Below the pieces are notes generated by a model, which saw only the letters and a list, made by a program, of their open reading frames with translations, made no database searches and was not told the origin of the DNA. A stretch of 64,000 bases of DNA from an uncultured Candidatus Saccharibacteria bacterium (GTDB lineage Bacteria > Patescibacteriota > Saccharimonadia > Saccharimonadales > JAGQNJ01): positions 450,208-514,207 of the forward strand of contig OZ246406.1 in NCBI GenBank assembly GCA_965231045.1. Direction: 5' to 3'. Positions 3,331-59,610 of the stretch are shown one piece after another (position 1 is the stretch's first letter; each line of letters begins with the position of its first letter). The position numbers and the translations under genes are program-made.

Positions 3331-4545
3331 TTAACGATCGATGAATGTTAGGGCATGGCCAACTTTGCCAGCTCGCCCAGCTCGACCAATACGGTGCACA
3401 TAGTCATCGTAAGTTTTTGGTGTCGAGTAGTTAATCACGTGGGTGACATCAATCACGTCAATACCACGCGCCGCTACATCAGTAGCTACCAAGATAGTCA
3501 CTTGGTTGTCTTTGAATCGCTTCAATGAGCGTTGGCGCTGACCTTGTGATTTACCACCATGAATTGCATCAGCCGAAAAGCCACGAGCAATCAGTTCATT
3601 GCTCAGGCTCTCGACACTTCGCTGCGTATCATCAAAGATAATTGCCTTGGCGATGTTCTGGTTAGTCAAAAGGTCATGCAAGTGCTCGATCTTTCGACCG
3701 CCGTTAATTCGTACGACATCTTGGTGAATATTCTCACCAGTTTCGCCAGTTTTTACAGAGATCATAACTGGATTGTTAGCAAACGTCTCAATCAACGATT
3801 TTACGCGTGCATCAAGTGTTGCCGAGAAAAACAACGATTGCCGCTTCTCAGATAGGTTGCTAAGAATACTGCGAACATCGTTCACAAAACCCATATCTAG
3901 CATACGGTCAACTTCGTCGAGGACGACGCAGTTAAAGTCGCGTAGTTGTAGGCTTCGGCGTTCAATATGGTCTTTGATACGGCCAGGTGTACCGATAACC
4001 ACTCGTGGGTTTCGGCGCAAATCGCTCAGTTGTCGGCCCATACCAGATCCACCGATTAATACAGCTCGACGCAAGTTACTGTCTTTGCTAAGCACATAAA
4101 ACTCTTCGTCGATTTGCTGAGCCAGCTCGCGTGTTGGTGCTACCACCAAAACTTTAGCGTTGTTGTTCATGATTGCCTGGATGGCTGGTACGGCAAAAGC
4201 GGCTGTCTTACCTGTTCCTGTATCGGCAATACCGATAATGTCGCGGCCAGCTAAAATCTCTGGAATTGCTTGATCCTGAATTGGCGAAGGCGTTGTAAAC
4301 CCTTTTCGCTCCAAGTTTCGAACCAATAGTTGATTTAGGCCAAAATCAGCAAACTGATGTTTGGCTTCATAGGTTGTCTGTTCTTTAGGTGTTGCCACCT
4401 TAACAAAACGGCTTGGATCAATGTAGTCTTTCTTAAGACCGCCGCGCCTTGGCGCACGATTTTGTGAAAATGACCGGCTCCGGCCACCGCCGTGATAGTT
4501 GCCGCCACTTCGGCGACCTGAATTAAAGTTTTTATTATAAGGCAT
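3331..4545 (-). CDS. DEAD-box ATP-dependent RNA helicase with RGG-rich N-terminus
   Basis: Q-motif GFTTPSPIQ, motif I ADTGTGKTAAF, motif II DEVD, SAT, and HRIGRAGRAG motif VI. Confidence 0.9.
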   Translation of the reverse strand: MPYNKNFNSGRRSGGNYHGGGRSRSFSQNRAPRRGGLKKDYIDPSRFVKVATPKEQTTYEAKHQFADFGLNQLLVRNLERKGFTTPSPIQDQAIPEILAGRDIIGIADTGTGKTAAFAVPAIQAIMNNNAKVLVVAPTRELAQQIDEEFYVLSKDSNLRRAVLIGGSGMGRQLSDLRRNPRVVIGTPGRIKDHIERRSLQLRDFNCVVLDEVDRMLDMGFVNDVRSILSNLSEKRQSLFFSATLDARVKSLIETFANNPVMISVKTGETGENIHQDVVRINGGRKIEHLHDLLTNQNIAKAIIFDDTQRSVESLSNELIARGFSADAIHGGKSQGQRQRSLKRFKDNQVTILVATDVAARGIDVIDVTHVINYSTPKTYDDYVHRIGRAGRAGKVGHALTFIDR

Positions 4546-4734
4546 TAAAATAACCCTTCGTTTTAGAGGCTTTCGCCCTTGATATTACTTCGATTGTGAT
4601 AATGAAATATCGAGTAATACGTCTAAAACAAACCCGGGTTCACTAATTACAATGTCCATATACATTAGCATTATTTTTAAGAGGTGTCAACAGTTTAGCC
4701 CCTACTTTCTTGTTTCTGCAAGAAAGCTAGCAAA

Positions 4735-4872
4735 GAACCGACAGGCGACTGGCTCGTATGATGCAACCACCTGTCAAAGCACACAACAGCCTCAGTAACT
4801 CGCTCCGCTCAGACATCCCTCGGCTTTATAGTTGTGCCTTTGCCGTGTTTGCTCAGCCTCCCCAGAGCCTGG
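4735..4872 (+). repeat. G+C-rich intergenic repeat, copy A (left flank of the R-M cassette)
   Basis: Collinear anchor blocks shared with copy B in inverted orientation: CAGGCGACT 4742-4750, ACTCGCTC 4798-4805, CAGAGCCTGG 4863-4872. It also shares blocks with the copies at 35453-35517, 32329-32420 and 26350-26518. Aligned by eye. Confidence 0.55.
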
Positions 4873-4906
4873 GAATATTACCTTACCTCTGATAGTATAA
4901 ATATCA

Positions 4907-7384
4907 ATGAGTAAAGAGGCTGCTGCTCGAATCAAAATCAATAAACTGCTTGAGGAAGCTGGTTGGGATTTTGATCAAAATATTAAGGTTGAGGCTGGCG
5001 TAAACATTAACGAAGTTGGTGATGATTACGAGCACAGTAAACATGGATTTATTGATTACTTACTGCTGGATGACAAGGGTTTCCCTCTTTTAGTTCTGGA
5101 GGCAAAAAAAGAAAGCAAAAGTCCGCTAGATGGTAAAGAGCAAGCAAGGAATTACGCAAGAAGCAATAAAGCCAGATTTATCATTCTAAGCAACGGTAAC
5201 CTGCATTACTTTTGGGATACAGAACATGGCACCGAAAAGTTAATCACTGACTTCCCTTCACAAAAATCATTACTTGATTTGCAGGATTACAAACCAGACC
5301 ACAAGACACTTGCCGGTGAGAAAGTTCAAGGAGATTACATTGCTCTCAGTCAAATGCCAAACTATGCTGAAGATCCAGACTGGCTGGCCGGAGGCCACAA
5401 GCAAGAAGCATTCAAAGATCGCCATGGCTTAAAGTTTATGCGCTACTACCAGCTCGATGCAATCCATGCCATCCAAGATGCTGCTAAAGAAGGTAAAGAG
5501 CGCTATCTGCTTGAGATGGCAACAGGTACTGGCAAAACTCTTACAACGATAGCAATCTGCAAACTATTTTTAAGAACTGGAAATGCCAGCCGAATACTAT
5601 TTTTGGTTGACCGTATAGAACTAGAGAAGCAAGCAGCTAAGGACTTTAAGGCAATCAAAAATGACTATTTGACTAGTGTTTACAAAGAAAATAAAGATGA
5701 TTGGCGCAAAGCAAATATAGTGATCTCCACAGTCCAGACGCTAATGGCCGGCGACCGATACAAAAAGGAATTTGACCCTACAGATTTTGATCTAGTAATT
5801 TCAGATGAAGCACACCGCTCCATCGGTGGCAACTCACGCAGTGTATTCGAATACTTCATTGGCTACAAACTTGGCTTAACTGCCACTCCAAAAGACTATC
5901 TAAAACATGTAGATACAAACAAAGAGAGTCAAAAGGACCAAGAGCGACGGCAGCTATTAGACACTTACAAAACCTTTGGTTGTGATAGTGGTGAGCCGAC
6001 ATATCGTTATGACCTAAAAAAGGGTGCCGCAGATGGCTTTTTGATTCAGCCAACAGTGGTCGATGCACGTACAGAGATAACTACCCAACTACTTAGTGAT
6101 GAAGGTTACGAAGTTGAACGCAAGAATGACGAAGGCGATATTGAAAAACAAGTTTACTTTAGTCGTCAATTTGAGCGTAAGTTCTTTAACGAAGATACGA
6201 ACGTTGCTTTCTGTAAGGCTTTTGTAGATAACGCGTTACGCGATCCAATTAGTCAGGAAGTTGGTAAAAGCCTTATTTTCTGTGTAACTCAAGACCATGC
6301 GCAAAAGATTACTCTAATACTAAATCAAATTGCCGACAAAAAATGGCCTGGAAAGTACAGTTCCGACTTTGCAATTCAAGTAAGTAGCAACGTAGACGCC
6401 GCACAAGAAATGACCACTAAGTTTAGCAACAACAACCTTAATGGCACAACTCGCTTTAAAGATGGCTACAAATCCAGCCGTACGCGAATTTGTGTAACGG
6501 TTGGGATGATGACAACTGGATACGACTGCCCTGACATTCTAAACGTTGCTTTTATGCGTCCTGTATTCAGCCCTGCAGATTTTATACAAATGAAAGGCCG
6601 TGGCACGCGAAGAGCCGTATTTAGCTACGAGGACGAAACCAAAGAAAAGTTTGAGGTTCCCAAAAAAGCCTTCAAGCTTTTTGACTTCTTCGCAGTATGT
6701 GAATACTTCGAGGAGAAGTTTAATTACGACGAGCAGCTTAAACTACCGCCAACCATTGGGCGCAAAAACGTTGATGAAGAAGAACGAACAGAACGCTACA
6801 TAACAGACGATTTGGAGCTTGGCAGACGCGACGATATCCAAACTATCAAAGAAGAGCAAATCGGTAATGAAGGCATGCGTGTGGACCGTGAAGTTTGGGG
6901 CGAAAAGGCGAAAGAAGCTATAGAAAAAGACCAAGAAATCTCTGAATTATACAAATCTGGCGATATTTATGGTGCCGAAAAGGCCGTGATAGAAAAACAC
7001 TTTGAAAAGCCAAAACTATACATCAGCCGTAGTAAGTTCAAACAAGCTTTCAAACTCGACCGTCGCCCGCATGTAAAAGAAATATTGGAATATGTGTTTG
7101 GTGATCGTGATAACTTTCAGTCAAAGGACGAAATTGTATCAGATGAATTCGAAAGCTTTGTGCAAAACGAAGGCATTACACCAGATCAATACAGTGCAGC
7201 ACGTGATGTATTTAGTGCATACACCACTGATCCACATGTACGTGAGCTGATTGACGAAGGTCGCTTTGCAGAGCTAGACTTCACAGGCCTCAAAATGGAC
7301 GACTGGATTAACCTAGCGCCTGAACTACGTAAACGCATTCCTGAATACGCCCGTGATTATGTTTTAGAAAAAGTTGCTGATTAA
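4907..7384 (+). CDS. hsdR: Type I restriction enzyme R subunit (HsdR-like, 825 aa)
   Basis: N-terminal PD-(D/E)xK HSDR_N-like region (IDYLLL...VLEAKK). Helicase motifs ATGTGKT, DEAH (VISDEAHRS), GLTATP, MKGRGTR. EcoEI_R_C-like C-terminus. Confidence 0.85.
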   Translation: MSKEAAARIKINKLLEEAGWDFDQNIKVEAGVNINEVGDDYEHSKHGFIDYLLLDDKGFPLLVLEAKKESKSPLDGKEQARNYARSNKARFIILSNGNLHYFWDTEHGTEKLITDFPSQKSLLDLQDYKPDHKTLAGEKVQGDYIALSQMPNYAEDPDWLAGGHKQEAFKDRHGLKFMRYYQLDAIHAIQDAAKEGKERYLLEMATGTGKTLTTIAICKLFLRTGNASRILFLVDRIELEKQAAKDFKAIKNDYLTSVYKENKDDWRKANIVISTVQTLMAGDRYKKEFDPTDFDLVISDEAHRSIGGNSRSVFEYFIGYKLGLTATPKDYLKHVDTNKESQKDQERRQLLDTYKTFGCDSGEPTYRYDLKKGAADGFLIQPTVVDARTEITTQLLSDEGYEVERKNDEGDIEKQVYFSRQFERKFFNEDTNVAFCKAFVDNALRDPISQEVGKSLIFCVTQDHAQKITLILNQIADKKWPGKYSSDFAIQVSSNVDAAQEMTTKFSNNNLNGTTRFKDGYKSSRTRICVTVGMMTTGYDCPDILNVAFMRPVFSPADFIQMKGRGTRRAVFSYEDETKEKFEVPKKAFKLFDFFAVCEYFEEKFNYDEQLKLPPTIGRKNVDEEERTERYITDDLELGRRDDIQTIKEEQIGNEGMRVDREVWGEKAKEAIEKDQEISELYKSGDIYGAEKAVIEKHFEKPKLYISRSKFKQAFKLDRRPHVKEILEYVFGDRDNFQSKDEIVSDEFESFVQNEGITPDQYSAARDVFSAYTTDPHVRELIDEGRFAELDFTGLKMDDWINLAPELRKRIPEYARDYVLEKVAD

Positions 7385-7746
7385 AAGAAGTCTGACGCTC
7401 TTTCTATGGCAATCTTATCAATTGTATTATCGTCATAATTCTGCGTGTGTGAAACTATAGTTAGCAAAACGATCTTGTCCCCACTTACTGCAAACCACAT
7501 GCGAGGCCATTGGCTAGGCCTTAAGCCAGAGCCTGGTACAGCCATTTCTACTTTCCAGAGTGACCAGATCGCATTTTGATGAATCCGATGAATTTTTCCT
7601 GGAGCAATTACTTCATCAGGACTTGTTGGATCAAATTGTTTTTCAAGTAGTCTCTCAACTGCGCTCAAACCAGCAGTCGTTCCGGGGTATTTCTTTACGA
7701 GTTGCTTGAGCTCCCCAGAGAACTGATCATGTCGCAGAAAATTCAT
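7381..7746 (-). CDS. putative RelE/ParE-superfamily-like toxin, partner of the Panacea antitoxin
   Basis: Start chosen at the internal Met (MNFLRHDQF...), which overlaps the upstream gene stop by 20 nt. The C-terminal pattern LWKVEM...RMWFAVSGDKIVLLTIVSH resembles the RelE/ParE core. Family assignment is tentative. Confidence 0.5.
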   Translation of the reverse strand: MNFLRHDQFSGELKQLVKKYPGTTAGLSAVERLLEKQFDPTSPDEVIAPGKIHRIHQNAIWSLWKVEMAVPGSGLRPSQWPRMWFAVSGDKIVLLTIVSHTQNYDDNTIDKIAIERASDFF

Positions 7747-8233
7747 TAAAATCAGTCCCTCTATAAAAAGCCAGGTCATATGGTATTTCTTCACTAAGCT
7801 TTGTACCAATGTAGGGTGCCTCAGCATGTGTCAAGTCTTCTAGTTGCTTCCCGTTCAAACCTCCATAGAGCTTTGAAACTCGTTGAAGAATAGCTATGTC
7901 GTCTTCATCAAACACTGACATATCAGGTTCAGCCGTGCAAGTATACGTCTCTGTTGGTTTATAACCAGGGACACCTTCTATGGCATCTATTCGCAATTTG
8001 CCTGCCTTTGCCATTTTTTGAACAACATTCGGCATATTCTCTGGGAAAGGACCCATGGGCAAGGCTTTATAGACGTCCCCTGTTAAGGTCTTCATCGATT
8101 CTTTGTATTCGTAGTGGTCAAAGTCAAGATAATAGAGAAGCTTAGCGAGTTTTTTCTTACCATGAAGAACTCCGCCCTGTTGTTTACAGAGGTATAGAAT
8201 CGCGTTCTCGTACTTATTCAATGCTACGGCCAT
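7727..8233 (-). CDS. Panacea/DUF4065 (SocA/GepA-like) antitoxin-domain protein
   Basis: 168 aa. KKLAKLLYYLDFDHYEYKESMKTLTGDVYKALPMGPFP is typical of DUF4065 (PanA) proteins. Confidence 0.7.
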   Translation of the reverse strand: MAVALNKYENAILYLCKQQGGVLHGKKKLAKLLYYLDFDHYEYKESMKTLTGDVYKALPMGPFPENMPNVVQKMAKAGKLRIDAIEGVPGYKPTETYTCTAEPDMSVFDEDDIAILQRVSKLYGGLNGKQLEDLTHAEAPYIGTKLSEEIPYDLAFYRGTDFNEFSAT

Positions 8234-8282
8234 AAAATTATTATAACAACAAACGCAATGTTTATCGACTGCTTATGCTTAA

Positions 8283-10871
8283 CTACTGACTCCAAACTTC
8301 GGAGATTTTGTCTTTTATTTTTTGCTCAAAAATGGTTATTAATTGACGATTTTGGTCGACTAATATATTTCTGAGCTCCATATAGTCTTTAGCAAGAATC
8401 CTTTGTTCGTCTATAGATGGCAACGGTATTTTTATTCTTTTCAATGCACCACCGTTAAACTGCGGTTGGGCTCCTCCTTGAACAAGTTGTCTTGCTTGCA
8501 TCCAATAATCTTGGCACTGTGCATATGCCCAGTAAAATTCTGGTAATATTTTGGATACATCAAAATTTAATCTAATTAAGAACGATGCGAATACCGCTGG
8601 CTCGTTGTCTGTATAGATAGCAGTTTTACCATAAGTCGCCCCAGTTCGTGCAACGAGCACATCATTTTGATGTAATAAGTATTTTTCAGCCTCTGCGGTT
8701 AGGTTAATGTACTTCGCACCATCTTTTTTGACTGAACCCATGTCGTCAATATCTGTAATACGCACAAGCCTCGCCGACCCCTTATCTTTAGCGCTAGCTG
8801 TAAAGCCGTATTCGATACTTGCTACTTCATTAAGCTCAAACTTAGGCCAAGATGGTTTAACCACAATGTTCATCCCTTTAACTTGAGACATCTCTTTGGC
8901 TAAATCGATGATTTTTTGGTAGCTGTCGAGCTCGGCAACAATTTCTTTCTGCAGCTCAATCGGTGGTAGTGGTATTTCAAGATTTTTTATTGAGGTTGAA
9001 TTTATGCTGGCCTGGTTAACGGCTCTTTGTGCAAATCTCTTTGCATCATCTGTAAACAAATCCGACTTAAATACGTATAAAGCGTACTCCGGGATTATTT
9101 TTGATGTATCAGGCCGTAGCCTAAGTAGGTTCGAACCATGTATAACTTTCTCTTTACTTTCAAAGAGTGCAGTCTTAGCTAAATGATCAATGCTGTTTAT
9201 ATGGCTGAAAAGAATATCGCCTTTTTGTAGATAATCATTCTCATTCACGTCATCAGTAGACCATTTAACTGCATCTAGATTTACAATACCTTTTGCGATT
9301 GTTTGTATTCTAGACACTTTGTGACCTATAGGTTCGTCAGTTTGTTTAACGTTTTTGCCATTTTTAATTTCTATAAAAATGTCGCTGAGTTTAGATCTTG
9401 GCCATTTTTGATTTTGACTTGTTTCTGATACCAAGTACCGCGAAGCTGTTAGGTTGTAATCGCCACTCTCAGCAATTTTGTCTCGGCTCACCGCAACTAT
9501 CTCGATTTGATCTACTTCTGCTGGTGAACCAATTATATCCGGACCCCCAACGGTACTTAGTCCAATGGTAAATAAACCAGATTTTTTGAGTTCGTCTTTG
9601 ATAGTTTGTATATCAGTTTTTGGTTCTTTTCTGTATCTTTGTAGTATCTCAGCAGTCAGCGGCAAGTCGTTATGTGCTATTGGACGACGCTGTGCACCAA
9701 GGTCAAAACCGTCGTGCTCAATTTTTGCAAAAATAATGTCTTTGGATTGTTTTGCTCTGCTGTTATCAAAGATTAAGATACTGGTCTTAACACCTGCATA
9801 CGGGTTAAAGACGCCGGCAGGGAGCGAAATAACCGCAAGTAGGCCATCTTCAACTAAGTTTTTGCGTAATTGCTTGTATGCTTTGCCGCTTTGAAAAATA
9901 ATGCCTTCGGGCACAATAATGCCAGCCCGGCCGTTTTGCTTGAGGTGGCTCATGATGTAGTCAACAAACAAAACTTCTGCACGAGAAGATTCAACACCAA
10001 ACTTATTGTGTGGGCGAATCCCACCCTTTGGTGACATAAAGGGCGGATTGGCCAAAATAATATCAAAGGTATCACCCCAACGCTCTTCACTTGTTAAGCT
10101 GTCATACTCGTAAATCTGCGGGTCATTATTTCCATGCAGGTACATATTGACTCGAGCAAGTTTAACCATGTCGCTACTTATGTCGTAACCTTCTAGGTTG
10201 CTCATGAGTTTTTGCTTTTCTTGATGAGTCAGTGACTTTTCGTTATTTTTTTTACCATTTTCATCAACACCGTCATGCTTTTCAACAATATGCTTATAGG
10301 CACTGATAAGGAAGCCCGCCGTGCCGCAAGCTGGATCCAAAATAGTGTCGTCCTTATCTGGATCCAGCACCTTTACAATGAAGTCAATAATGTGACGAGG
10401 TGTACGGAACTGCCCCGCATCGCCCTGTGAACCCATAATGCTGAGCAAGTACTCGAAAGCATTGCCAAGTTCTTCGCTGTGATTGTAGTCAAAAAACTCA
10501 ATTTCTTTTAGGAACAAGTTGAGCGTTTCTGGGTCTCGGTACGGCAAAAAAGCTTGACGGAATATATCACGAAACAATTGCGGTAACTGTGCGGCCGTAC
10601 TAAACTTTTCCAACGCTTCTGTATACATATTCAAGCGCTCTTGCGAGCCACTGCGTGGGTCCATGAGTTTGCGCCATGCATACTTTTCTAGATCACCAGT
10701 AAAGAAAGAGGCTTTTCCGCCAGCATCTTTGGCCTTGATATCCATATCATCCATGAACTTATATATAAGTGCGTTGGTGATTTGATCTATCTGCTGCTTT
10801 GGATCTGGGACCTTACCAACTAGAACCTGCCTAGCACTATCAATATGTCTTTTTGTATCAGCTGTAAGCAT
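8283..10871 (-). CDS. Type I R-M fused methyltransferase-specificity protein (HsdM-HsdS fusion, 862 aa)
   Basis: N-terminal HsdM_N-like region. AdoMet motif DPACGTAGFL and catalytic NPPF (ILANPPFMSP). The C-terminal ~400 aa holds two TRD/conserved-helix units (…IPLPPIELQKEIV… and …IPLPSIDEQRILA…) typical of HsdS. Confidence 0.85.
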   Translation of the reverse strand: MLTADTKRHIDSARQVLVGKVPDPKQQIDQITNALIYKFMDDMDIKAKDAGGKASFFTGDLEKYAWRKLMDPRSGSQERLNMYTEALEKFSTAAQLPQLFRDIFRQAFLPYRDPETLNLFLKEIEFFDYNHSEELGNAFEYLLSIMGSQGDAGQFRTPRHIIDFIVKVLDPDKDDTILDPACGTAGFLISAYKHIVEKHDGVDENGKKNNEKSLTHQEKQKLMSNLEGYDISSDMVKLARVNMYLHGNNDPQIYEYDSLTSEERWGDTFDIILANPPFMSPKGGIRPHNKFGVESSRAEVLFVDYIMSHLKQNGRAGIIVPEGIIFQSGKAYKQLRKNLVEDGLLAVISLPAGVFNPYAGVKTSILIFDNSRAKQSKDIIFAKIEHDGFDLGAQRRPIAHNDLPLTAEILQRYRKEPKTDIQTIKDELKKSGLFTIGLSTVGGPDIIGSPAEVDQIEIVAVSRDKIAESGDYNLTASRYLVSETSQNQKWPRSKLSDIFIEIKNGKNVKQTDEPIGHKVSRIQTIAKGIVNLDAVKWSTDDVNENDYLQKGDILFSHINSIDHLAKTALFESKEKVIHGSNLLRLRPDTSKIIPEYALYVFKSDLFTDDAKRFAQRAVNQASINSTSIKNLEIPLPPIELQKEIVAELDSYQKIIDLAKEMSQVKGMNIVVKPSWPKFELNEVASIEYGFTASAKDKGSARLVRITDIDDMGSVKKDGAKYINLTAEAEKYLLHQNDVLVARTGATYGKTAIYTDNEPAVFASFLIRLNFDVSKILPEFYWAYAQCQDYWMQARQLVQGGAQPQFNGGALKRIKIPLPSIDEQRILAKDYMELRNILVDQNRQLITIFEQKIKDKISEVWSQ

Positions 10872-10945
10872 TAACCCCTCTCTGTTTCTGGTTTTATTTT
10901 ACACCTGGTAACAGATCAGGGGTGTTGTGATTTTTATTCAGTTAA

Positions 10946-11080
10946 CCAGGCTCTGCAGGCTCCTGATGATGTGAGTGTCAAAGCGACCTTTTGAGCGAGT
11001 GCGTGGAGCTTGCGGCAACGCCGAGCATGGTCGCGCTTGGCAGCGAACTCATAAAGAGCCGTAAGTCGCCTGCGGCGTTT
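10946..11080 (-). repeat. G+C-rich intergenic repeat, copy B (right flank of the R-M cassette, inverted relative to copy A)
   Basis: CCAGGCTCTG 10946-10955, GAGCGAGT 10993-11000 and AGTCGCCTG 11064-11072 are reverse complements of the copy-A anchor blocks, in the same order and with similar spacing. Confidence 0.55.
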
Positions 11081-11122
11081 TTGATACTTTTGCCGCTGTT
11101 GGTAAAAGTATGAAGCAAAAGG

Positions 11123-11989
11123 TTATTTGCAATAATCACTGGTCTTGCCACTGGCTTGGTCAGCAGCAGGGAGTGACTTAACAATCGCGGCATCTTTACT
11201 TGGAAGCATATCGAACCAACAAACTGCAAATCCAGCCTGGCTAAGTTCGTTTTGGTGTTTGCTCACAAATGATGCATTTTTTGAAGCTTCGTTTGGTTGT
11301 CTGAGATCATATACTCCAAAGTCAAACGCTGTGTTTTTTGGCGATGAATTTTTAAAACCGACTGCCGTAGCCACAACATCTCCTGCTTTTACTGAAATTG
11401 GCTTATCAAATGGAGTTGTTCTAGAATCGTCTTGTTTTGCAGCAGGTAATTTATCTGCCTGTTCCTGGAATGTTGGAGCTAATGTAAGCAAGTGATCGAA
11501 TCTATATGAAATGCCGCAAGCATTTGTAAAGCGCAGCATGTACTGCACCTCACCCTGCTCAATATATCTGCTACCTTCAACCAATTGCGCATCCATAACA
11601 GCGCTGACTTTCACATCGCTATTGTTGAGGCCATCGAATCTAAGACCGCCATGAGGTTTGTAGTTACCGCCACGTGTTTGGCCTGGGTATAGAACTGCAG
11701 TAGCCTTACTAACATCAGCTGGTGAATTATTAAAGACTAGTGGGTTCGGGCAAGTTGGTGGTGTGTCACTTGGTTGCCACTTTGAGCCATCAAACTGCCA
11801 ATCCACGTTTGTGGACGCCGATGAAGCAGATTGTGATGAACTTTGTGAAGTTTGATTACTACTCGTCGGTTTTTTACTAAACACTCGCCAGCCAACAAAG
11901 CCAACGACCGCCAATATAACAACTATTAACAATATTAAAAGAACGTGAGCTATTCCATTTTGATCTTTACGCATATGCTTATTATACAC
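11123..11989 (-). CDS. membrane-anchored extracytoplasmic protein, function unknown
   Basis: 288 aa. N-terminal TM (VLLILLIVVILAVVGFVGW) followed by a Ser/Gln-rich linker. No catalytic motif recognised. Confidence 0.55.
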   Translation of the reverse strand: MYNKHMRKDQNGIAHVLLILLIVVILAVVGFVGWRVFSKKPTSSNQTSQSSSQSASSASTNVDWQFDGSKWQPSDTPPTCPNPLVFNNSPADVSKATAVLYPGQTRGGNYKPHGGLRFDGLNNSDVKVSAVMDAQLVEGSRYIEQGEVQYMLRFTNACGISYRFDHLLTLAPTFQEQADKLPAAKQDDSRTTPFDKPISVKAGDVVATAVGFKNSSPKNTAFDFGVYDLRQPNEASKNASFVSKHQNELSQAGFAVCWFDMLPSKDAAIVKSLPAADQASGKTSDYCK

Positions 11990-19796: not shown

Positions 19797-19815
19797 TGGT
19801 GGAGCTGCCGAGTAC
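19797..19815 (-). repeat. 19-nt exact duplicate of the tmRNA 3' end (T-stem 3' strand + acceptor + ACCA)
   Basis: TGGTGGAGCTGCCGAGTAC at 19797-19815 is identical to 19969-19987. Similarity continues into the GATTTT flank. Confidence 0.9.
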
Positions 19816-19930
19816 GAACTATTTTGCGCCTAGGGACAAAATTGCTTCGCAATTGCCCATGGCGGCCAAGCAAGGATTCCTCAAACTGCCACTGGCAGTT
19901 CTCACCCTCACGGCCAGCACTCGAACGTCA

Positions 19931-19966
19931 AACAAAAAATCTCCATTCCATAAGGAATCGAGATTT
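19931..19966 (-). terminator. intrinsic terminator 2 nt after the tmRNA 3' end (inside the insert)
   Basis: Minus strand reads AAATCTC-GATTCCTTATGGAATG-GAGATTT followed by TTTGTTTG. Confidence 0.5.
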
Positions 19967-19968
19967 TG

Positions 19969-20381
19969 TGGTGGAGCTGCCGAGTACTGCCCTCGGGTCC
20001 GTCAGTTTATCTTTGTTAGTCTTCTACAGGTTTAGTCTATCTAAGTGTCTTAGGAGTATGTCTCAAGATAGACAGAAAAACATATTCCGCAGACTCTAAA
20101 GTCTTGGCACTAATAAGGAGTCAACTTATCAATGGGCATCCAGAAAATATGACATGCGTATTGAAATATCTGGCGTCATTCAAAGCACGGCTCCGGTAAT
20201 TAAACTGAAGCTGTTACGGTCTGAAGCTGTAGACCTGTAAATGCGTTAGCAAATACAGAAGCTACGCTCTTCAAACCGCGAGTAATAGCGTTTGCAATTA
20301 CTGGGTTTTGCCTATAACGCTGACAAGCGACCTGCAAGATCTAACTGATAAAGTCCAACGTCGAGCTTAAAATTCAGCCCC
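19969..20381 (-). ncRNA. ssrA: tmRNA (SsrA), 413 nt
   Basis: 5' GGGGCUGAAUUUUAAGCUCGACG and 3' CCGAG-GGCAGUA-CUCGG-CAGCUCC-A-CCA. The acceptor pairs GGGGCUG/CAGCUCC with the G3:U Ala identity pair. Candidate resume context UAAUU-GCA-AAC-GCU resembles E. coli UAGUC-GCA-AAC-GAC. Confidence 0.88.
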
Positions 20382-26349: not shown

Positions 26350-26518
26350 GGCCTGGTTAATTTGGCTGGATGTCCCACTAGGCGCAATTGAAGTACGACT
26401 GAGGCGTATAAGAATACGGCGAATGAGTCCTGGAAATTGCAACAACGTGGGGCACCAGAAGTTCGACAGAGTTCCTGGCTCTGCCAGGAAGCAGGTCGAA
26501 AGTCACATTAGCCAGGCT
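26350..26518 (-). repeat. G+C-rich structured intergenic element, copy F (candidate ncRNA, rearranged family member)
   Basis: GGCCTGGTTAAT 26350-26361 can pair with ATTAGCCAGGCT 26507-26518 (12 bp including 2 G:U). Internal hairpins are CCTGG-CTCTG-CCAGG 26475-26489 and CGTAT-AAGA-ATACG. It shares ACTGAGGC 26398-26405 and GGATGTC 26368-26374 (both rc) with copy A, and GCCTGGTTAA 26351-26360 (rc) with copy B. Confidence 0.4.
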
Positions 26519-32238: not shown

Positions 32239-32324
32239 ACTTTTCTATTCTTCTTATGCTTCAGTGTACCACAGTTCTCAGTTACTTTGGACCGCCAAAG
32301 TAACCAAAACTCTTGGGCTAACGT

Positions 32325-32425
32325 TTTTTCTTTATGAAGCCTCTGCTCAAGCCTGACAACAGCCTCGAGAACTCACGTTGTTCAAACAACTCTCGACTAA
32401 TGGTTGTCAGTTTGAAGAGCTTACA
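32325..32425 (+). repeat. G+C-rich intergenic repeat, copy E (inside the 322-nt pgk-tpiA spacer)
   Basis: TATGA 32333-32337, ACAACAGCCTC 32356-32366 (identical to 4783-4793), AACTC, and TAATGGTTGTCAGTTTG (compare TATAGTTGTGCCTTTG in copy A) are collinear with copy A. Confidence 0.5.
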
Positions 32426-32560
32426 AAGGAAAAAGCCGATGCCAAAACTTGCAAATGACCATTCTTTACAAAATTGCATGGAACGAGTTCTTAGTTTTAA
32501 CAGGGTCCAGCGTAGTGCTGGCGAAGCCAAAGCGCACTGTTAAAACTATAGTAGGAGTGG

Positions 32561-35370: not shown

Positions 35371-35401
35371 TAAAAAGCCCAGCCGATGCTGCGCTCTTTT
35401 T
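35371..35401 (-). terminator. intrinsic terminator after the displaced tRNA-Glu 3'-end copy
   Basis: Minus strand reads AGCGCAGC-ATCG-GCTGGGCT (one mismatch) followed by TTTTTAATTTTTTT. Confidence 0.5.
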
Positions 35402-35419
35402 GGTGACCTCAAGGGGAAT
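35401..35419 (-). repeat. 19-nt exact duplicate of the tRNA-Glu 3' end
   Basis: TGGTGACCTCAAGGGGAAT at 35401-35419 is identical to 35531-35549. Confidence 0.9.
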
Positions 35420-35530
35420 GTTGCTTCGCAACCGTTCGTTCCACTCACGAACGAACCGCCTGACGGGCTTCGAGCTCGCCTTTGGCGAGCAACCACGCAA
35501 AAGCCCGAGTACACAACTCGGGCATTCACG
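35420..35530 (+). repeat. 111-nt insert between tRNA-Glu and its 3'-end duplicate; partial member of the G+C-rich repeat family
   Basis: Collinear with copy A: GAACCG 35453/4735, GAC.GGCT(T)CG, GCAACCAC 35489-35496/4763-4770, CAAA(A)GC, and ACACAAC 35511-35517/4781-4787. Hairpins are GTTGC-TTC-GCAAC, CGTTCGT-TCCACTC-ACGAACG and GCTCGCC-TTT-GGCGAGC. Confidence 0.55.
35497..35523 (-). terminator. intrinsic terminator 8 nt after the tRNA-Glu 3' end (inside the insert)
   Basis: Minus strand reads GCCCGAG-TTGTGTA-CTCGGGC followed by TTTTG. Confidence 0.6.
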
Positions 35531-35605
35531 TGGTGACCTCAAGGGGAATCGAACCCCTATTGCCAGGATGAAAACCTGGTGTCCTAACCGTTAGACGATG
35601 AGGCC
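35531..35605 (-). tRNA. tRNA-Glu (anticodon UUC), CCA encoded
   Basis: GGCCTCATCGTCTAACGGTTAGGACACCAGGTTTTCATCCTGGCAATAGGGGTTCGATTCCCCTTGAGGTCACCA folds as a cloverleaf. Anticodon stem CCAGG/CCTGG, loop UUUUCAU. Confidence 0.9.
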
Positions 35606-52441: not shown

Positions 52442-52606
52442 ATAACAGATTTACAAGTATTTTTTAATCTGTTAAAATTGCCTTCTGTTAGCTTGCTAAC
52501 AAAGCATTATCCCTAATTTTTCGAACCAAGGAGTGGCTTTGCCTCTCGACTGTTTGAAAAATTAAGAGGAAGAGGGAGTGCTATAAGGTGAAGCTCTGCG
52601 AGTTTA

Positions 52607-52642
52607 CTCGTCAGAGCAAGCCCAAAGCCTCACTCTGACGAG
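52607..52642 (+). other. perfect 10-bp hairpin abutting the tRNA-Lys 5' end
   Basis: CTCGTCAGAG (52607-52616) / CTCTGACGAG (52633-52642). The last G is tRNA nt 1. The upstream GCGAGTTTACT 52598-52608 matches rc of copy A 4794-4803. Confidence 0.5.
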
Positions 52643-59344: not shown

Positions 59345-59386
59345 AAATCTATGGTAACAGACAGCCTGTGGTTAATCGTATTGCAC

Positions 59387-59403
59387 GGTACACCGGGAGG
59401 GAT
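59387..59403 (-). repeat. 17-nt exact duplicate of the tRNA-Arg 3' end
   Basis: GGTACACCGGGAGGGAT at 59387-59403 is identical to 59535-59551. Confidence 0.88.
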
Positions 59404-59494
59404 AATCGCACATTAATCTGTGCGCCGAGAATCTCGGGCAACAGACTAATGACCGAACCCTGGATCGAATCCCTGCTCGAAATGTCGAGCTAAA

Positions 59495-59519
59495 ATATAA
59501 AACCACCCATTCTGGGTGG
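59495..59519 (-). terminator. intrinsic terminator 14 nt after the tRNA-Arg 3' end (inside the insert)
   Basis: Minus strand reads CCACCCA-GAA-TGGGTGG followed by TTTTATATTTT. Confidence 0.6.
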
Positions 59520-59533
59520 CAAAATATTTTACC

Positions 59534-59610
59534 TGGTACACCGGGAGGGATTCGAACCCCCGACCCTCTGTTCCGAAGACAGATGCTCTAATCCGCTGAG
59601 CTACCGGTGC
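59534..59610 (-). tRNA. tRNA-Arg (anticodon UCG), CCA encoded
   Basis: GCACCGGTAGCTCAGCGGATTAGAGCATCTGTCTTCGGAACAGAGGGTCGGGGGTTCGAATCCCTCCCGGTGTACCA. Anticodon loop CUUCGGA. Confidence 0.9.

Follow-up and report, generated by a model that had tools for sequence, protein, structure and literature searches.

The DNA analyzed here is a stretch of 64,000 nucleotides from an uncultured Candidatus Saccharibacteria bacterium (assembly GCA_965231045.1, contig OZ246406.1, positions 450,208 to 514,207), and this whole stretch is referred to below as the window. It has a G+C content of 42% and includes genes for tRNA-Glu, tRNA-Lys, tRNA-Arg and transfer-messenger RNA (tmRNA). When the tpiA protein of the window was used as a query, matches were found in Saccharibacteria (TM7, candidate phyla radiation or CPR) genomes only, and because the best identity was just 76% there appears to be no close reference for the source organism; looking up the exact tpiA protein gave no record. 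The subject of this study is a structured intergenic element that occurs in the window at three sites, named A, B and E. On the evidence of a covariance model, A, E and a decayed B are copies of one uncatalogued family. This model (R1) was trained on 18 copies from metagenomes with the window sequences excluded; the window was scanned with the filters off, and the E-values from that scan are only rough. The copies and the genes around the first two of them are as follows, where hp1 is a hairpin near the 5' end and P1 the helix that closes the element.

3331-4545, minus strand: DEAD-box helicase gene, one neighbor of copy A
4706-4881, plus strand: copy A, full length (87.0 bits, E=3.5e-20); hp1 at 4705-4726, P1 strands at 4741-4746 and 4868-4872, apical core at 4783-4835
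4907-7384, plus strand: type I hsdR (Pfam), the other neighbor of copy A
7381-7827, minus strand: open reading frame (ORF) of 148 aa between hsdR and hsdM/hsdS, overlapping the antitoxin ORF
7727-8233, minus strand: antitoxin with a SocA/Panacea domain (Pfam)
8283-10871, minus strand: fused hsdM/hsdS (Pfam), one neighbor of copy B
10938-11115, minus strand: copy B, full length, at the expected place and on the expected strand (16.9 bits, E=0.016)
11123-11989, minus strand: unannotated ORF, the other neighbor of copy B
32278-32455, plus strand: copy E (96.2 bits, E=1.7e-22); hp1 at 32281-32304, apical core at 32356-32407

Three copies of one family in the window

A sequence-only reading of this DNA had proposed a dispersed, hairpin-dense, G+C-rich and non-coding intergenic repeat with at least five to six copies. 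Such a family does exist, with A, B and E as its members. In the scan with model R1 these were the three best hits, and everything else in the window had an E-value above 0.8. The coordinates that had been given and the 11-mer that A and E have in common, ACAACAGCCTC (4783-4793 and 32356-32366), were correct. When A was compared with E, blastn aligned 82 nt at 66% identity (E=8e-5) and nhmmer gave E=0.002 against 1.3 Mb, while the local alignment score exceeded that of dinucleotide shuffles by z=11.6; all three methods thus relate the two copies. Copy B had been described as inverted relative to A, and its reverse complement is indeed collinear with both A and E, though weakly (z=4.0 for B against E with the same shuffles). 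The 5' blocks of A and B agree at 23 of 28 positions, and the collinear blocks that these two copies have in common read CCG.CAGGCGACT..GGCTC.TTATGA ... CAGAGCCTGG. All three copies begin with a (U)ACUUU...AAAGUA hairpin, which is followed by a CAAAAAC-like spacer and then by a rod. The G+C content is 0.51 in A, 0.53 in B and 0.43 in E against about 0.20-0.35 in ordinary spacers, so the claim of elevated G+C also stood.

The three copies differ in their state of preservation. Copy E folds as a rod (z=-4.6), the head of copy A is damaged and partly degenerate (UCAGUAACUC...CAUCCCUCGG), and copy B is degenerate, having kept hp1, the spacer, P1 and the outer rod while most of the apical core is gone. 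Flanking direct repeats were sought around all three, and only weak ones at chance level were found. A third exact occurrence of the motif at the 3' ends of A and B, CAGAGCCTGG, was detected at 7527-7536, where by our own estimate only about 0.1 would be expected; it lies in coding sequence between A and B, has unrelated flanks and was dropped.

The remaining sites of the earlier list did not hold up as copies. Site F (26350-26518) had been listed as intergenic, but most of it is covered by two ORFs; its similarity to the other sites was not significant (p>0.06), and its score with model R1 was 9.3 bits (E=1.3). An insert beside the tRNA-Glu gene and the leader of the tRNA-Lys gene gave no match to the model in the window scan, and the similarity between A and the tRNA-Glu insert (z=3.6) did not survive correction for 30 comparisons. 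Since these three sites fail the family model, the copy number is three in 64 kb.

The absence of a recognized match was confirmed. A search of the window with Rfam 15 at the gathering threshold returned three tRNAs and the tmRNA only, and the E-value mode, applied to A, E and the best-scoring member of the family (locus L131), returned nothing relevant, with zero hits for L131 at E<=10. No matching description of the family was found in the literature.

Distribution in related genomes

Copies in relatives are labeled by locus (L0xx or L1xx), where the loci are metagenome loci for the family and tpiA neighborhoods for the reference genomes. The fourth copy was first found in a distant relative (L053). 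A family pattern was built from the blocks common to A, E and L053, ACAAYNGCCTNNNNNACTCN{7,37}TCARACANNYCTCG, and because it carries about 42 bits, less than one chance match is expected by our own estimate. This pattern found 62 copies at 59 metagenome loci, from which the 18 training copies were taken, and model R1 found 85 copies across 61 sources. When model R1 was applied to the tpiA neighborhoods of 80 reference Saccharibacteria (1.2 Mb), only L053 was detected (1 of 80). Hence the family is real and common in metagenomes, with a patchy spread among lineages. The pattern found nothing in viral contigs, and blastn searches of phage and plasmid collections gave no match.

A fold maintained by compensatory substitutions

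The element is about 180 to 240 nt long, with a modeled part of about 180 nt that grows to about 230 nt when the upstream hairpin (hp0) is counted. Model R1 comprises hp1, helices P1-P6 and the conserved core. The predicted parts of the element, from 5' to 3', are listed below.

hp0: the 5'-most part, an optional hairpin, commonly GUUCUUUUCCAAAGAAC
hp1: hairpin 3' of hp0, whose loop pairs with the 4-6 nt immediately 5' of P1 (predicted pseudoknot)
A-rich spacer: between hp1 and P1
P1: pairs with the 3' end of the element, as CUGGGC/GCCCAG or, in A and its relatives, as CAGGC/GCCUG
P2-P5: long interrupted rod closed by the 5' and 3' ends, about 45 modeled bp

The rod ends in a nearly invariant head, ACAAC-AGCC-UGC-GGA-ACUC, a variable tip hairpin and then UCAAACAG-UCC-UC-GGCU...GUUGU, within which the conserved apical core is the motif pair ACAACAGCCUGCGGAACUC...UCAAACAGUCCUCGGCU. 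A short helix of the head alternates between GGA/UCC and GAG/CUC. Sequence conservation peaks in the center of the element, and the columns of the arms covary. Tip hairpins can differ where the arms look near-identical by eye, as in L085 and L120, which lie on a single contig.

RNAalifold recovered almost no structure from plain MAFFT alignments of 3, 4 or 34 copies because the arms were out of register in them, and model building needed alignment of subsets together with voting over single-sequence folds. Covariation was then measured in a model-guided alignment of 79 distinct sequences and 57 modeled pairs. In this alignment 87.3% of the cells at modeled pairs are paired, compared to 64.4 +/- 0.4% in shuffles (0 of 500 shuffles reached the observed value), compensatory double changes occur at 56 of the 57 pairs, and 962 double-change cells were counted against 304 in shuffles, though all of these figures are somewhat inflated because the alignment was fitted to the structure of the model. 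Pairing falls to 34-45% once the partners are slid by 1-3 columns, and the covariation of P1 is visible in a plain MAFFT alignment as well. Within the limits of the model, this comparison shows that the fold has been kept by compensatory substitutions across dozens of divergent copies.

Two further features of the alignment bear on how the fold is read. A U.G pair is conserved in 48 sequences, and GU and UG pairs together outnumber AC and CA mismatches (217 vs 141), which argues for a single functional strand. The loop of hp1 and the flank of P1 share complementary runs with a mean of 4.8 nt, compared to 4.32 +/- 0.105 when partners were swapped between sequences, and because this exceeds the swapped-partner level a pseudoknot is likely.

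Neighboring genes, convergent pairs and cargo

The genes next to the copies are mutually unrelated and the element is oriented at random relative to them, which makes a cis-regulatory leader unlikely. Among 309 ORFs around the copies, no neighbor family recurred in more than 5 of the 59 loci, and no transposase, integrase or reverse transcriptase recurred beside copies. Among the neighbors, dut, prfA, an rpoD-like gene and, beside one copy, an IS481-like transposase gene could be recognized by eye. One recurrent family (4 loci plus the window) encodes a surface protein, and annotation covered this cluster alone. Together, the copies compared here show an element that is non-coding and strand-specific and that has no fixed gene partner.

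Adjacent copies are convergent (3' to 3') in 19 of 25 cases (p=1.3e-7), and most of these convergent pairs are 4-40 nt apart. By eye, several pairs appear to share a central hairpin in the spacer, and the members of a pair usually belong to different subtypes that are about 50-60% alike. At three loci (L112, L135 and L114) fragments of the 5' or 3' end adjoin full copies.

Copy B is the convergent partner of copy A, at a distance of about 6 kb. Between them lies a cargo (4907-10871) of hsdR on the plus strand followed by the 148-aa ORF, the SocA/Panacea antitoxin and hsdM/hsdS on the minus strand, and the two ORFs at 7381-8233 are probably a toxin-antitoxin pair embedded in a type I restriction-modification locus. 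Another convergent pair, in L140, has its copies 7 kb apart, and between them lie the genes for a zeta toxin, for DUF5674 and for a type IIG restriction-modification enzyme. The ORF at 11123-11989, directly upstream of B and co-oriented with it, encodes a membrane-anchored, Ser/Gln-rich surface protein for which no Pfam or NCBIfam family was found above the cut-off. A homologue (L140 36-797, 47.6% identity over 290 aa by tblastn) lies directly upstream of, and co-oriented with, the L140 copy at 851-1028. The window and L140 thus have one flank in common and carry different cargo.

On the other side, the helicase beside A has a homologue with 56% identity in L099 that is again divergent from a copy of the element, and the arms of this copy resemble those of A by eye; no convergent partner was found for the L099 copy, which is solo. 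The shared helicase neighbor suggests long-term retention of a copy at this place. Copy E lies in the spacer between pgk and tpiA, antisense to both genes; most of the 80 relatives compared have a spacer of just 25-60 nt, and in none of the 80 does it contain the element.

An apparent TATAAA box (4896-4901, within 4885-4909) was noticed 5 nt before the ATG of hsdR (4907). This suggests that the hsdR mRNA may be leaderless, and with the box only 5 nt from the ATG, copy A is probably not the hsdR 5' untranslated region.

What the element may be

The reading we favor, though only tentatively, is that of a strand-specific RNA that would serve as a boundary or anchor. We infer that the element functions at the RNA level, probably by way of a protein that recognizes the conserved loops of the apex, and that its copies, working in cis, form the borders of a variable slot. 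Such a slot would be empty in most pairs (4-40 nt, often with one hairpin) and would hold defense or addiction genes in the two kb-spaced pairs that can be annotated. The invariant core would provide conserved homology on both sides of the slot, which may allow cargo to be exchanged between lineages by recombination.

Several observations weigh against this. Just two kb-spaced pairs have cargo that can be annotated as defense or addiction genes, and two other pairs (L102 and L104) enclose small unknown or HTH genes. The spread is patchy, with a copy in 1 of 80 reference loci while the window holds three, and copy E is an insertion relative to all relatives compared; both would suit a mobile element better than a housekeeping RNA. 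There is no enrichment of intrinsic terminators 3' of the element (8 of 69 in sense vs 7 of 69 in antisense), reading the flanks by eye, with no formal scan, brought out no conserved sigma-70-like promoter upstream of hp0 or hp1, and the inflation of the covariation figures noted above applies here as well.

A possible but rather unlikely explanation is that the element is a non-autonomous mobile DNA element of the MITE (miniature inverted-repeat transposable element) or foldback type. A convergent pair would then represent the ends of a transposon, an empty pair its miniature form and the restriction-modification and toxin-antitoxin genes its passengers, and a single-stranded DNA intermediate, recognized by a trans-encoded enzyme, would require the fold. 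The patchy, lineage-specific distribution, the insertion of E into a normally short spacer, the unrelated contexts and random orientation of copies, the near-identical arms (by eye) of L085 and L120 on one contig, the inverted pairs that bracket cargo and the end fragments beside full copies all speak for such an element. However, the most conserved sequence is central rather than terminal and the arms covary, the members of a pair are different subtypes, and the window copies are old, with 66% identity between A and E. Three aligned pairs, whose exact termini are uncertain, showed no visible target-site duplication at their edges. The lack of a recurrent transposase, integrase or reverse transcriptase beside copies, the place kept beside the helicase gene at 56% protein identity and the empty searches of viral contigs and of phage and plasmid collections also speak against mobility.

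It is unlikely that the copies are instead paralogous, independently transcribed small RNAs acting in trans, for example as protein-sequestering or scaffold RNAs recognized by their conserved apical loops, with pairing and defense genes being incidental (as with convergent genes that use one terminator). The strand-specific fold with its pseudoknot and conserved internal loops would suit such RNAs, as would the persistence of distinct subtypes across organisms and the lack of association with a gene in cis, and the central hairpin that some pairs appear to share could be a bidirectional terminator. Yet neither a promoter motif (by eye) nor an enrichment of terminators accompanies the element, and no target complementary to the conserved loops was found in the window. 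Three divergent copies in 64 kb would be costly in a genome expected to be small, the apical cores of A and B are damaged, and the orientation bias of adjacent copies is very strong.

The sequence-only reading had also raised the possibility that the unit is the leader-plus-trailer shell of a tRNA or else a small RNA gene in which a tRNA may or may not be embedded, its two halves being represented by the tRNA-Glu insert and the tRNA-Lys leader. This is largely refuted and we regard it as very improbable. Weak similarities do exist between A and the minus strand of the tRNA-Glu insert (z=3.6) and between that strand and the plus strand of the tRNA-Lys leader (z=5.2), the tRNA-Glu insert shares the 9-mer CGTCAGGCG with some family members, and the tip hairpin of one copy (L104) shares AACTGCCAGTGGCAGTT with the tRNA- and tmRNA-linked units of type 2 described below. 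However, the family model misses both sites, tRNA genes are not consistent neighbors of any of the 85 copies, and homology (nhmmer E=4e-4) instead links the tRNA-Glu insert with units located behind tRNA-Glu in relatives, whose defining feature is a duplicated tRNA 3' end. That there is no family at all, only a chance likeness of unrelated G+C-rich hairpins, applies to F, the tRNA-Lys leader and most of the short blocks listed earlier, such as TTAACCAGGC, and might apply to B alone (E=0.016, a rough value), but it is hardly credible overall and is refuted for A and E by their alignment score (z=11.6), by E-values of 1e-20 or better with an independent model and by dozens of homologues with compensatory changes.

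Inserts behind tRNA and tmRNA genes

The tRNA-Glu insert is a separate class, defined here from the sequences of the units: a structured insert that follows a tRNA or tmRNA gene and ends in a duplicate of the 3' end of that gene. Three such units lie in the window, and the one at tRNA-Arg was missing from the earlier list.

35531-35605, minus strand: tRNA-Glu gene, with a 111-nt insert at 35420-35530 and the duplicate at 35401-35419
59386-59610, minus strand: tRNA-Arg(TCG) unit, with a 131-nt multi-hairpin insert at 59403-59533 and the duplicate at 59386-59402 (16 of 17 positions)
19797-20381, minus strand: tmRNA unit, with a 153-nt insert at 19816-19968 and a 19-nt duplicate of the 3' end at 19797-19815

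At tRNA-Glu the duplicate is exact (35401-35419 equals 35531-35549, 19 of 19). Its insert starts with a first terminator-like hairpin, which has a U-run and pairs back to the CCA end, and continues with a multi-hairpin segment, and a second terminator lies beyond the duplicate. Homologous units follow tRNA-Glu in many relatives among the Saccharibacteria, sometimes two or three in tandem. The tmRNA unit is of the type with the core AGGGUGAGAACUGCCAGUGGCAGUU, its own insert core being given as AGGGTGAGAACTGCCAGTGGCAGTTTG. This type has four hairpins, with compensatory changes at 18 of 32 pairs in seven sequences. The tmRNA insert has significant nhmmer matches to the units behind tRNA-Glu in L005, L006 and L043 and a weaker one in L045 (E=0.12). 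Rfam, searched with the gathering thresholds and at E<=10, had no match for the tmRNA-linked unit or the units of relatives. A search of viral contigs for the type-2 core gave one match inside an ORF, which was judged to be due to chance. None of the tRNA-Glu, tRNA-Arg and tmRNA units is a member of the A/B/E family by model R1 (the tRNA-Arg unit scored 7.8 bits).

These inserts resemble integrative elements at the 3' ends of tRNA and tmRNA genes in that a direct repeat of the last 16-19 nt bounds the insert and in that tandem arrays occur in relatives. They differ in that the inserts are only 111-153 nt long, are non-coding, have conserved covarying hairpins and have no integrase nearby. A 3.8-kb insert in L075 contained no integrase-like ORF when its translations were read by eye.

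Two side observations concern these units. The tip hairpin of the L104 copy of the A/B/E family (1252-1459) contains AACTGCCAGTGGCAGTT, the hairpin that forms the core of the type-2 units (19880-19910 in the window), which hints at a possible module shared between the family and the tRNA- and tmRNA-linked units. The 5' leader of tRNA-Lys (52595-52641) contains a hairpin, ACTCGTCAGAG...CTCTGACGAG, that abuts the tRNA, and no duplicate of the tRNA end was found there. This leader matches the 5' part of the tRNA-Glu insert at 24 of 33 positions (z=5.2).

Inserts that duplicate gene ends affect the annotation of tRNA genes, and they may reveal a miniature integration mechanism.

Other elements noticed

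The sole intergenic part of site F is a 71-nt spacer (26446-26516, 58% G+C) between a G5-domain gene and a HAD hydrolase gene. It contains a nested hairpin, TTCGAC..TTCCTGGC..GCCAGGAA..GTCGAA, has no U-run and is unrelated to the A/B/E family.

The pgk-tpiA spacer is 100-300 nt long in about 20 of the 80 Saccharibacteria, and several long, unrelated hairpin elements take up the room there (L009, L018, L023, L049, L065 and L076). As judged from these spacers, it is an insertion hot spot.

Another element, of about 85 nt, was noticed in relatives; it was not found in the window, and Rfam had no match for it. Its layout is UAUGAG, a hairpin, CUCAUCGCGCC, a second hairpin and GGCUGCUCUYYYC, and it occurs at the following sites and about 15 others.

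L015: 9901-9997
L021: 9898-9994
L040: 6196-6292
L053: 6436-6534
L080: 9564-9662

The pyrimidine 3' tail of this element covaries as the mirror image of the pyrimidine strand of a hairpin (GAGAGGGG with CUCUCCCC, GAGACAAA with CUCUUUU), a pattern reminiscent of a triple helix in the major groove. Complementarity of the tail to the downstream ribosome-binding site was also noticed by eye, and the element would be riboswitch-like if the two pair. It lies upstream of tpiA and of a gene recognized by eye as rsmA/ksgA. Where it is present, the end of the adjacent gene is duplicated (L015 at 9860-10045, L021, L040, L053 and L080; L038, L067 and L077 at about 13.6-14.4 kb). Upstream of tpiA, its first 14 or so codons occur a second time with synonymous divergence and with promoter-like sequence before them, and the element is flanked by direct repeats of about 30-48 nt from the 3' end of a gene in L067 and L077 and, in more diverged form, in L038.

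Comparison with known systems

Several known classes were considered for the A/B/E family, and all but the MITE were rejected. A MITE recognized by its terminal inverted repeats does not fit a central peak of conservation and arms that covary, with double changes at 56 of 57 pairs, and a MITE with an autonomous partner does not fit the lack of a recurrent transposase gene among the neighboring ORFs. Retron non-coding RNAs were set aside because no neighboring gene recurs and because the helix that closes the element, P1, does not enclose hp0 and hp1. Integron attC sites do not match either, since the copies are mostly convergent, the base of the stem (P1) is variable while the conserved sequence is apical, and no integrase was seen. 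The palindrome-associated elements (PATE) of IS200/IS605 and the guide RNAs of TnpB or IscB were rejected because no such gene recurs nearby and Rfam, which includes HEARO RNA, had no match. The 6S and signal recognition particle RNAs were dismissed because of their anatomy, their copy number or the absence of linked genes.

The closest likenesses are partial. The ERIC/IRU, BOX and Correia repeats are likewise dispersed, non-coding intergenic elements of 100-250 nt with long imperfect hairpins, no linked protein gene and either orientation to their neighbors. In the present family, however, the arms are kept by compensatory change, the apical loop module is invariant, there is a predicted 5' pseudoknot, copies within a genome are old (at most 66% identical) and convergent pairs combine different subtypes. 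The family is not known to be related in sequence to these repeats. MITE or foldback transposons and MITE-flanked composites share the inverted copies around a short spacer or passengers, the patchy spread and the insertion polymorphism (as at pgk-tpiA), whereas in this family no conserved terminal inverted repeats, target-site duplication, autonomous partner or recurrent transposase was seen, and the two ends of a pair are divergent subtypes.

The pdif modules and the minimal mobile elements of Neisseria also hold variable restriction-modification or toxin-antitoxin cargo between inversely oriented conserved sequences, and the likeness extends to the window and L140, which share one flanking gene and differ in cargo. 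In our case the flanks are structured elements of about 180 nt rather than 28-bp Xer sites or housekeeping genes, no recombinase was found, and exchange is presumed. Finally, OLE, ROOL, GOLLD and raiA are likewise lineage-restricted RNAs of more than 150 nt with many covarying helices and few invariant loops that were discovered by comparative genomics ahead of any known function; unlike them, this element is multi-copy and paired within a genome, and it has no match to their Rfam models. The family is therefore uncatalogued and belongs with structured dispersed intergenic elements or non-coding RNAs, with unusual pairs that bracket cargo.

Implications

A bolder version of the boundary reading is that convergent pairs mark dedicated, exchangeable slots for defense and addiction genes, where folded RNA or single-stranded DNA would be recognized by a trans-acting recombination or processing machinery that would place or swap cargo between the 3' ends. 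We consider this improbable. If true, it would represent a new kind of RNA-delimited gene-cassette system, possibly akin in mechanism to the inserts at the 3' ends of tRNA and tmRNA genes.

The genomes of CPR bacteria such as Saccharibacteria are tiny, and few non-coding RNAs have, to our knowledge, been described in them. A multi-helix, RNA-like element of about 200 nt that is absent from Rfam is a new entry for RNA catalogues, and convergent pairs around differing restriction-modification and toxin genes may provide a handle on how defense genes are acquired and exchanged in reduced genomes.

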